NCBI GenBank assembly: GCA_947641735.1
Contig: CANRQR010000003.1
Coordinates: 8,392-72,391, forward strand
Length of the DNA stretch: 64,000 nt
From: an uncultured Lactobacillus sp.
GTDB taxonomy: Bacteria > Bacillota > Bacilli > Lactobacillales > Lactobacillaceae
Reading direction: 5' to 3'
The translations under genes and the position numbers were made by a program. How positions within the stretch are numbered: the stretch's first letter is position 1; every line of letters begins with the position of its first letter. The notes below the pieces were generated by a model. The model was not told the DNA's origin, searched no databases, and saw only the letters and a program-made list of their open reading frames with translations. Below are positions 12,051-46,570 of the stretch, piece by piece.

Positions 12051-12065
12051 AAATCCAAGCGATTT

Positions 12066-12230
12066 TTATACTCGTCGTTCAGTTTTAACACTACGTGACG
12101 TAAGGTTATTTAACATAACTAGCTGGCTGGGGAGGGCCTTATATCGACGATCCCTGTTTGACCCGTTGGCATCTCTGGATGTTGCTGGGCGACAGCATGT
12201 GTTCACGTAGGAGTCTCACCTAACAGTTTA
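12066..12230 (-). ncRNA. M-box (ykoK) Mg2+ riboswitch
   Basis: - strand GTTAGGTGAGACTCCT...TGCTGTCGCCCA...GATGCCAACGGGTC...ATCGTCGATATAAGG...AGTGTTAAAACT..ACGA closely follows the ykoK leader; upstream of an Mg-ATPase homolog. Confidence 0.92.
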
Positions 12231-12290
12231 TTTGCTCTAATATTTAATTTCTATTGATACTTTAACGGCTAACTAGCTTTTAGTCAAGCC

Positions 12291-15176: not shown

Positions 15177-15247
15177 GCGGGTATAGTTTAATGGTAAAAT
15201 GTCAGCTTCCCAAGCTGAAGATGCGGGTTCGATTCACGCTATCCGCT
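15177..15247 (+). tRNA. tRNA-Gly(CCC)
   Basis: Acceptor stem GCGGGTA/TATCCGC, anticodon arm TCAGC-TTCCCAA-GCTGA, TTCGATT loop; CCA not encoded; one G.A mismatch in T-stem. Confidence 0.92.
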
Positions 15248-34353: not shown

Positions 34354-34426
34354 AGCCGTTTCCCAGATTTGAACTGGGGACCTCCTCCTTACCACGGCGG
34401 TGCTCTACCTCCTGAGCTAAAACGGC
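34354..34426 (-). tRNA. tRNA-Thr(GGT)
   Basis: - strand GCCGTTT TA GCTC AGGAGGTA GAGC A CCGCC GTGGTAA GGAGG AGGTC CCCAG TTCAAAT CTGGG AAACGGC T. Confidence 0.9.
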
Positions 34427-45425: not shown

Positions 45426-45683
45426 ATGGCAAAAAAATCCAAAATCGTTAAGGCTGCTAAGCAGCGTGAATTAATCAAGAAATACTATGAATTAAAAGAA
45501 GCTGGTGACGTAGAAGCATTAGCAAAATTACCGCTTGATGCTCACCCAACTCACTACCATAACCGTGATTTACATGATGGTAGACCACATGGTTATATGC
45601 GTAAGTTTGGTATGTCACGTTTACGCTTTAAAGAATTAGCACACAAGGGACAACTTCCTGGTGTGCGCAAAGCTAGTTGGTAA
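45426..45683 (+). CDS. rpsN: 30S ribosomal protein S14, Zn-independent (C-) form
   Basis: MAKKSK..., [25 protein letters not shown]; no CxxC. Confidence 0.95.
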
Positions 45684-45737: not shown

Positions 45738-45764
45738 AGACATTCCTGATGGAATGTCTTTTTT
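45738..45764 (+). terminator. Terminator of rpsN
   Basis: agacattcc-tgat-ggaatgtct-tttt. Confidence 0.8.
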
Positions 45765-45903
45765 GTGTTTAATACTACAAATTCTCAATTTATATTTTGA
45801 TATAATTTTTATTAGGCTTTTATAGATAGCTGATATAAGGGCTTAGTAACTTTTCATGGCTCTACACCCCTCACATATATTTTAGGTTACGGAGGTGGAA
45901 GCC

Positions 45904-46048
45904 ATGATAATTTGGATAGGCTGGAGTGTTGGTGTGCCTTGATAATAGCTGCTATTGCTATCGGCATGTCTTAAACGCATTGGGTATTTTCCTAATCCGT
46001 GCAGCAATTGCTTATGCAATAACAAAAAAGGCTAATCACAAGGATTAG
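45904..46048 (+). pseudogene. Putative type I toxin (small hydrophobic peptide) broken by two -1 frameshifts
   Basis: GGAGGT RBS + ATG 45904; three consecutive frames give MIIWIGWSVGV / LIIAAIAIGM / LNALGIFLIRAAIAYAITKKANHKD*. Confidence 0.65.
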
Positions 46049-46113
46049 CCACACAATCAGTCATCTTAAGTTACGATTGGAGGTAGAGACTCGCACTCTC
46101 TATCTCCTTTTCT
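46024..46113 (-). ncRNA. Putative antisense antitoxin sRNA (~90 nt)
   Basis: - strand promoter ATGACA (46148-46143) -17 bp- TATAAT (46125-46120); - strand terminator ggctaatc-cttgt-gattagcc-U6 (46050-46025). Confidence 0.65.
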
Positions 46114-46116
46114 TTT
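46079..46116 (+). terminator. Terminator of putative toxin mRNA
   Basis: ggaggtagaga...tctctatctcc-ttttctttt. Confidence 0.7.
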
Positions 46117-46177
46117 ACAATTATATAAGATTTTTAAGGAGATGTCATCATTAATATATTTCAGCTTTGTCTGGTAA

Positions 46178-46570
46178 TTATTGATAATTCAATTTTTCCC
46201 TAAGTGCTTCTGTTAATACTTTGGAAAAATTAATTTTCTTTTTCTCAGCTTGGAGAGCTAGCTTAGCAGGTACAGTTACATTTTTTCTAACAGTTTTTTC
46301 AAAGTTAGCTGCTGATTTTGTTAGATCAGTCGATACTAATGCGACAAAAGCGCCAGGATCCTCTATTTTAATCTCAGCGGGATCAGTCATTTTTGGCAAT
46401 TTCTTTTCATCAAACAAAATTGTTCCCCAAGCATCTGCTGCCATTTCAAAAGCATCTTTTAGTCCATGCCCTTCAGTAATGGCTCCCTTAACATCGGGAA
46501 AACTAATAAAGTAAACATTATCTTCAATTGGTTTAAAGATTACTGGATATGTTACAATTCTTTCTTTCAT
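46178..46570 (-). CDS. HicB-family antitoxin (solo)
   Basis: YPVIF, ISFPDVKGAITEG..AFEMAADA, C-terminal RHH (KNVTVP...INFSKVLTEAL). Confidence 0.85.
   Translation of the reverse strand: MKERIVTYPVIFKPIEDNVYFISFPDVKGAITEGHGLKDAFEMAADAWGTILFDEKKLPKMTDPAEIKIEDPGAFVALVSTDLTKSAANFEKTVRKNVTVPAKLALQAEKKKINFSKVLTEALREKLNYQ

Follow-up and report, generated by a model that had tools for sequence, protein, structure and literature searches.

Within the window, the 64,000-nt stretch of Lactobacillus DNA that we analyzed, an unannotated cassette of ~350 bases lies between rpsN and an orphan hicB-like gene. A sequence-only reading of this DNA had proposed that the interval carries a type I toxin-antitoxin (TA) layout, with converging promoters, two terminators, and a single hydrophobic peptide of ~48 aa. 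The convergent arrangement of two promoters and two terminators is real in the sequence, and the cassette probably represents an undescribed family of type I TA modules in the Lactobacillaceae, as judged from its sequence and that of its relatives. The features of the locus are given below in order of position.

45426..45683, + strand: rpsN, 85-aa S14 protein (PF00253); left flank, outside the cassette, with the rpsN terminator at 45738-45759
45798..45806, + strand: extended -10 promoter of the leader/peptide mRNA, conserved in position; start site predicted near 45813
45813..45845, + strand: 5' hairpin of the mRNA, predicted by folding
45846..45852, + strand: element a (GTAACTT), complementary to the repeat copies at 46068-46074 and 45884-45890
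45855..45872, + strand: anti-AUG/anti-SD arm, pairing with 45892-45906 and hiding the leader SD and AUG (helices 2 and 3)
45880..45891, + strand: 5' direct-repeat copy, in a loop immediately 5' of SD1; the antisense RNA is predicted to target it in trans
45891..45897, + strand: SD1 (GGAGGTG), the strong ribosome binding site of the leader
45904..45942, + strand: leader ORF of 12 codons (MIIWIGWSVGVP, then a stop), not in the peptide frame; the leader TGA and the peptide TTG overlap
45923..45927, + strand: SD2 (GGAG), located inside the leader with 12 nt between it and the TTG; a helix of 45915-45933 with 46048-46065 is predicted
45939..46048, + strand: hydrophobic peptide ORF, putative toxin, with a TTG start and weak SD; intact relatives have 36 aa and end in KKANHKD; broken in the window
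46024..46050, - strand: intrinsic terminator at which the predicted antisense RNA would end, sharing sequence with the last peptide codons; helix 5 covaries
46024..46113, - strand: predicted ~90-nt antisense RNA, putative antitoxin (z -2.85); median predicted length 93 nt across copies
46058..46075, + strand: 3' direct-repeat block (CAGTCATC..AAGTTACG), pairing with the SD2 region (helix 4) and element a
46079..46116, + strand: intrinsic terminator of the mRNA, whose complement is the 5' hairpin of the antisense RNA; helix 6 has two-sided changes in 10 of 11 pairs
46120..46148, - strand: antisense RNA promoter, ATGACA-17-TATAAT, conserved in position
46178..46570, - strand: orphan hicB-like antitoxin gene (PF15919), right flank

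The rpsN product contains zero cysteines, which we take to be consistent with a zinc-independent S14 paralog. No hicA partner of the hicB-like gene is present in this genome, which is 72% complete. An L. gasseri plasmid (L255, 2908-3714) has a cassette tail-to-tail with a hicAB pair that is complete; the HicB of this pair is 40% identical to that of the window. The window also holds an M-box riboswitch and two tRNA genes (12063-12234, -; 15177-15247, +; 34354-34426, -).

Transcription signals and RNA structure

The extended -10 element TGATATAAT at 45798-45806, the GGAGGT at 45891, and the ATG at 45904 were all found where they had been read, as were the stems of the plus-strand (46079-46107) and minus-strand (46050-46030) terminators; the minus-strand promoter at 46148-46120 has 11 of 12 matches. 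Terminator-like sites number 6 against 0.7 in shuffles, and promoter-like sites in the 2-kb region show no excess over chance (9 versus 8.9). Since these latter counts match chance, the case for the promoters rests on positional conservation in the homologs. A strict minus-strand -10 lies 12 to 17 nt past the plus-strand terminator stem 88 times in 100 copies, compared with at most 6 per position elsewhere. On the sense strand, 88 of 120 copies have a -10 located 92 to 121 nt ahead of the AUG (23 in the next interval upstream and 63 on the opposite strand), a placement that lends moderate support to the position of this promoter. With respect to transcripts, RNA run X5 gave one contig of 277 nt (45806-46082), which is not joined to those of rpsN, and X7 gave two shorter contigs at the cassette; as both runs come from one study and are unstranded, these contigs are a weak hint of a discrete transcript. 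Runs X17 and X18 yielded long contigs over all genes and are uninformative on cassette transcription.

The predicted mRNA fold is more stable than its shuffles (MFE z -4.9). Across 32 aligned copies, two-sided changes occur in 26 of 44 pairs, and 94% of cells are paired versus 33 to 42% in slid controls, in a comparison that favors the tested structure somewhat, since it was derived from the window's own fold. Element a shows two-sided changes in 3 of 5 pairs to the 3' repeat copy and in 4 of 5 to the 5' copy, and the 5' arm covaries with the 3' AGTCAT in the +1 register. The complement of the 3' repeat block (46058-46075) constitutes the single-stranded core of the predicted antisense RNA. 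In 104 of 121 copies, the two direct repeats match better within than between copies (7.8 versus 5.8 nt). The antisense RNA of the window is predicted to pair at SD1 in trans with -28 kcal/mol (z -5.7); over the 32 copies, the mean is -22.8 kcal/mol for cognate and -18.8 kcal/mol for noncognate partners, a modest effect with the cognate partner best in 9 of 32 and z at or below -2 in 16 of 32.

Folding did not reveal how SD1 would become accessible. Whether folded at full length or as any of ten 3' truncations (11 forms in all), it has an unpaired probability of 0.24, and the free, forced-alternative, and antisense-bound models average 0.18, 0.21, and 0.20 and contain no freeing switch. Upon in silico 3' truncation, a counterpart of the 3'-end processing by which hok/Sok is activated, SD2 opens in some forms and SD1 in none. 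That no folded form opens SD1 counts against the activation step of the model proposed below, and we offer as conjecture that SD1 is opened via loop entry or via a pseudoknot that element a forms with the loop repeat.

Two features that define the type I class are recognizable here. The first, a hydrophobic protein of 20 to 60 aa on an mRNA of 150 to 400 nt, corresponds to the 36-aa peptide on a ~300-nt unit, the window copy being broken; the second, a complementary antisense gene with its own promoter and terminator, is present at the sequence level.

Leader and peptide reading frames

The single ~48-aa peptide of the earlier proposal did not hold up: the AUG frame comprises 12 codons and a stop, and the hydrophobic ORF with the basic tail is read in a different frame. 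A "repaired" ~48-aa product is not supported either; the normal locus has two frames encoding a leader and a peptide of ~30 to 38 aa. Our analysis of the frame relation started from 169 profile matches. A start candidate was available for 163 (in frame for 21), and the SD score was at least 6 for 127. Six of these were removed, namely, two frameshifted copies (including that of the window), three for which the peptide's own start had been picked, and one truncated copy. In the remaining 121 copies, the AUG behind SD1 is at -1 relative to the peptide in 68 and at +1 in 46, whereas it shares the peptide frame in 7. After clustering at 80%, the in-frame share is 5 of 77 (p 2e-8 versus one third, with kin that are not independent). 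The tree of copies requires 26 frame changes, 6 of which are accounted for by the seven in-frame copies. The offset between leader and peptide frames is the family norm rather than damage, and the overlap of the leader TGA with the peptide TTG is a feature of the window's lineage.

The leader itself appears to be conserved as a translated stretch rather than as a product. Within its first 27 nt, 4 of 114 copies have a stop, compared with 55 and 67 in the other two frames; the leader is open across SD2 in 110 of 114 copies (leaders of at least 9 codons), and an SD2 motif lies inside it in 97 of 114, versus 59 in shuffles. Amino acid identity is 14% for the leader versus 41% for the peptide. From the frame, stop, identity, and SD2 data taken together, we infer that selection keeps the leader translated over SD2 while ignoring its product, length, and frame and that it avoids fusion. 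Natural in-frame fusions of leader and peptide exist in the seven copies, and protein catalogues hold further forms of 41 to 48 aa known from protein sequence only. A lone 41-aa in-frame form (P0014, at L012 1289-1414, -) is without the usual 5' leader structure or plus-strand terminator and sits directly behind a normal copy.

The peptide ORF appears, from its substitution pattern, to be under purifying selection. In 37 disjoint pairs, dN/dS is 0.21 in the peptide frame, a value that can also reflect RNA-structure constraint, and 1.1 and 1.6 in the other frames, with differences by codon position of 122/78/264. AlphaFold models the peptide as one helix (pLDDT 90), and its hydropathy reaches 2.8. 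The best start candidates in 114 copies are TTG in 39, ATG in 20, GTG in 15, ACG in 11, ATC in 6, ATT in 4, and CTG in 4; under the selection rule applied, 15 of 114 copies have none. In related copies, ACG and ATG swap at one position. Searches of Pfam, NCBIfam, and PHROGs with 15 and 36 peptides returned scattered single-member matches and no family, the PDB sequence search and Foldseek returned nothing relevant, and the best ESM Atlas score was 0.77, again with no family. Catalogue homologs (29 representatives; 98 proteins) have no Pfam domain, and the named ones are nearly all hypothetical.

Distribution and decay of the cassette

The search for intact copies proposed by the sequence-only reading found them in abundance in the Lactobacillaceae, by both BLAST and a peptide profile built from 36 natural copies. 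By BLAST, 18 of 36 genomes from the same genus contain the cassette, and 0 of 24 from other families do. The profile detected it in 92 of 400 Lactobacillaceae genomes (about 23%), spanning 20 of 40 genera with up to 6 copies per genome, and in 0 of 257 genomes of other Lactobacillales families. Matches were found in 14 plasmid records, none with an annotated feature under the match; the phage records searched gave no match, and viral contigs gave two pattern matches, one of which is real. A terminator pattern scan returned 94 stretches, many of them chance matches outside lactobacilli, and was filtered with the peptide profile. Given abundant homologs, covarying helices, purifying selection, and the lack of any family match, the earlier suggestion of an undescribed type I TA-like family in Lactobacillus stands, and the cassette is apparently a real, conserved family that has not previously been described. 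We attribute the fact that gene callers mostly miss it to its obvious AUG being out of frame.

Three L. johnsonii records (L058, L092, and L113) contain a near-identical intact cassette, which makes this species group the most likely origin of the window. Since the rpsN-gpm junction is filled with a cassette in 8 of the 19 genomes that have this rpsN and empty in 11, insertion at this site is lineage specific. The flanks of copies at other sites vary widely and occasionally include type II TA, Mrr, AbiEii-like, and lysin genes (92 of 97 listed flanking ORFs), and there is no conserved partner gene among those 92. Tandem arrays (2 to 4 or more copies) and convergent pairs occur at L043, L172, L178, L106, L039, and L034; the copy-specific terminator loops and spacers in arrays suggest insulation between paralogs.

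Several other copies lie in settings of their own. On the L. amylovorus plasmid NC_017472.1 (L134), an intact copy has a tyrosine recombinase gene and genes for copper transport as neighbors, and tet(W) is ~3.2 kb away. An L. johnsonii plasmid (L256, 3028-3285) has an Fst-annotated ORF, seemingly over-extended at its N terminus, ~220 nt downstream of the cassette. Beside a family member at L081, the region 780-1115 has weak matches to RatA (E 0.13) and rli28 (E 0.025), both below gathering scores, possibly representing a neighboring TxpA/RatA-like module. The copy in a record titled as a Bacteroides MAG (L104) is of the Lactobacillus type and clusters with those of Lactobacillus in the tree; it is likely binning contamination.

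The window copy has a sole lesion, a 1-nt deletion near 45966 relative to its relatives, which results in a stop at 45972-45974 and ends the peptide after 11 codons. An assembly error was considered and rejected, as runs X19, X20, and X21 (three studies, one of which may be the source) match the window exactly; the deletion allele is also present in RNA runs X5 and X7, and the intact allele is found in runs X1, X17, and X18. The eight copies at the rpsN site comprise five intact ones, one with this deletion, one with a leader stop, and one with a leader stop and an IS200/IS605 insertion. More generally, by our reading, 12 of 104 3' halves are without any peptide ORF, and 0 of 80 5' halves are truly without a 3' half; as part of the searches used the 3' motif as their key, the count of orphan 3' halves is biased. 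One of the 12 is a second locus in the window's own genome, an antisense-only remnant that has neither a leader nor a peptide ORF (L002, G000:C9:39412-39538).

Known systems and a leader-gated model

Our comparison with published systems draws on excerpts of the papers cited. The cassette shares with par/Fst-RNA II, including Lpt/RNAII of Lacticaseibacillus and SprA1/SprA1AS, its convergent promoters, an SD-hiding 5' stem-loop, a 5'-3' long-range helix, a hydrophobic helix with a charged tail, and an occurrence on both plasmids and chromosomes (PMC7472228, PMC5608710, PMC8003834, PMC8309996), as well as direct repeats that let an antisense RNA encoded at the 3' end pair near the translation start (PMC7472228, PMC5608710). 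However, par/Fst has one shared bidirectional terminator and an antisense RNA clear of the ORF, whereas the cassette has two terminators ~30 nt apart, the antisense one within the last peptide codons, so that the antisense RNA overlaps the ORF end. Moreover, the strong-SD AUG of the cassette opens an out-of-frame leader and not the toxin. That the peptide does not resemble Fst had already been recognized, and we concur, finding neither an Fst signature nor a family match. The Fst/Ldr motif P/D/S/TxxxG and the conserved Trp between helix and charged tail are not shared by the family: PxxxG occurs in 0 of 36 cassette peptides, [PDST]xxxG in 7 of 36, and Trp in the last 14 residues in 1 of 36. 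An Fst-annotated ORF does not align with the cassette profile (hhalign probability, 0.2%), and the cassette peptides have no Fst match in Pfam or NCBIfam.

A second set of similarities connects the cassette to hok/Sok with mok and to ldr/Rdl with ldrX. These systems likewise have an overlapping leader in which translation up to the toxin SD, and not the product, is apparently selected, an anti-SD over the leader SD, a 5'-3' fold-back of the mRNA, and an antisense RNA aimed at the leader initiation region (PMC9841398, PMC4147584, PMC8167048). For mok, the excerpted genetics state that translation is needed up to the hok SD, that the product is irrelevant, and that later stops are harmless (PMC9841398), and the leader behavior deduced from cassette sequences matches this. 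In contrast to the cassette, whose antisense RNA is convergent at the 3' end and whose hosts are Gram positive, hok/Sok has its antisense RNA within the 5' UTR; there is no Hok-family sequence similarity, and the frame and length of the cassette leader vary freely. TxpA/RatA, BsrG/SR4, and SprG1/SprF1 also have a 3' convergent antisense RNA covering the ORF end and a short hydrophobic, basic-tailed peptide (PMC4147584, PMC8309996, PMC8594479). According to the same excerpts, SprG1 has two starts on one mRNA, but these are in frame, and RatA lacks the complementarity to the translation start region that the cassette possesses via its direct repeat (PMC4147584, PMC8309996, PMC8594479). In its predicted workings, the cassette is a hybrid-like form of par/Fst and hok/mok and a member of neither.

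Rfam has no match on the window (at the gathering threshold and at E of at most 10) or on the cassette in 20 homologous loci. The named type I systems of lactobacilli in the excerpted literature are Fst/Lpt-like and TxpA-like (PMC8003834, PMC10832526, PMC8167048, PMC8309996, PMC10730256, PMC2887945). A full-text search of openly accessible papers returned no description of the cassette and 0 matches to the peptide motifs. The available supplements of Fozo 2010 have no motif match, and as the candidate table there is organized by accession, a listing in it is possible; those of T1TAdb have no motif match either, and T1TAdb itself could list a member.

We propose a model in which a ~300-nt transcription unit, with two ribosome binding sites and with leader and peptide ORFs in different frames at the sequence level, works as a gated switch. 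In the full-length mRNA, the 5' stem is predicted to hide SD1 and the AUG, and the 3' end to fold onto SD2 and element a, as supported by covariation; with SD1, AUG, and SD2 all folded away, this form would be translationally silent. Following 3' trimming or refolding, ribosomes would load at SD1 and travel through SD2, and their passage, rather than the leader peptide, would open the poor peptide start (TTG, GTG, ACG, or long spacing), as mok does for hok. The antisense RNA would pair fully with the 3' end and, via the direct repeat, with the SD1-adjacent loop; by blocking leader translation, this pairing would shut off the peptide. In cells losing the antisense RNA, the single-helix, basic-tailed peptide would insert into the membrane and arrest or kill them, which in turn would stabilize carrier plasmids and chromosomal spots. 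Toxicity, the antisense transcript, and leader-peptide coupling are putative in this scheme. Based on sequence comparison, we assign a probability of roughly 0.6 to the reading that combines an undescribed type I TA family, an activating out-of-frame leader that licenses the membrane peptide, and silencing by a convergent antisense RNA; the type I TA identity taken by itself is clearly more probable.

An unlikely alternative is that the leader represses or dampens, with ribosomes at SD1 occluding SD2 and the toxin starting independently when leader translation drops. This would fit the +1-class leaders, which often run 24 to 44 codons over the peptide ORF with no stop/start overlap, and the conservation of SD2, which is more open in some 3'-truncated folds. 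Extensive overlap is, however, also found for mok, which nevertheless activates hok (PMC9841398, in excerpt). The strongest sequestering stem and the antisense repeat target both fall on SD1, as befits the block of an activator. Moreover, three relatives at the site have leader nonsense (L040, L072/L263, and L265, the last also with an IS), with the peptide ORF open in two, and a repressing leader predicts that such copies are harmful.

Equally unlikely is the proposal that the peptide is a nontoxic small membrane regulator under antisense and leader control and no addiction toxin. Layered silencing, poor starts, a patchy multicopy and plasmid spread, frequent inactivation of the peptide, and antisense-only remnants are TA traits and speak against such a role, despite the lack of any toxin family, solved-structure, fold, or language-model match and of a conserved partner among the 92 flanking ORFs.

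A programmed ribosomal frameshift that fuses leader and peptide into a toxin of 41 to 50 aa, close to the ~48-aa product once claimed, is distinctly improbable. Natural in-frame fusions (7 of 121; P0002 has 48 aa) and a usable shift window in most copies (median, 33 nt) would accommodate it, but -1 and +1 offsets are both found and change into one another along the tree, 3 of 68 -1 copies contain a classical slippery heptamer, some copies have a peptide-frame stop immediately before the TTG, and ATG, GTG, TTG, and ACG interchange at the position behind SD2. That the out-of-frame state is decay, with in-frame fusions functional and all others pseudogenes, is hardly credible: broken copies are common and in-frame copies exist, but 114 of 121 copies are out of frame with a peptide dN/dS of 0.21, the leader is kept open, and the in-frame copies form no deep clade.

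Returning to the leader-gated reading, we see an even chance that the cassette represents a Gram-positive type I toxin family combining an independently evolved, mok-like obligatory leader gate with par-like repeat targeting and near-cognate toxin starts (ACG, ATT, CTG), and thereby a natural two-cistron switch that is unannotated in about one quarter of Lactobacillaceae species. If true, this would constitute convergent evolution of leader-coupled toxin control in Gram-positive bacteria and a case of near-cognate initiation. The cassette resides on large Lactobacillus plasmids and might serve as an antibiotic-free part for retaining plasmids in food and probiotic strains. It also calls for caution, since a small ORF that seems frameshifted may be an intact two-frame switch.
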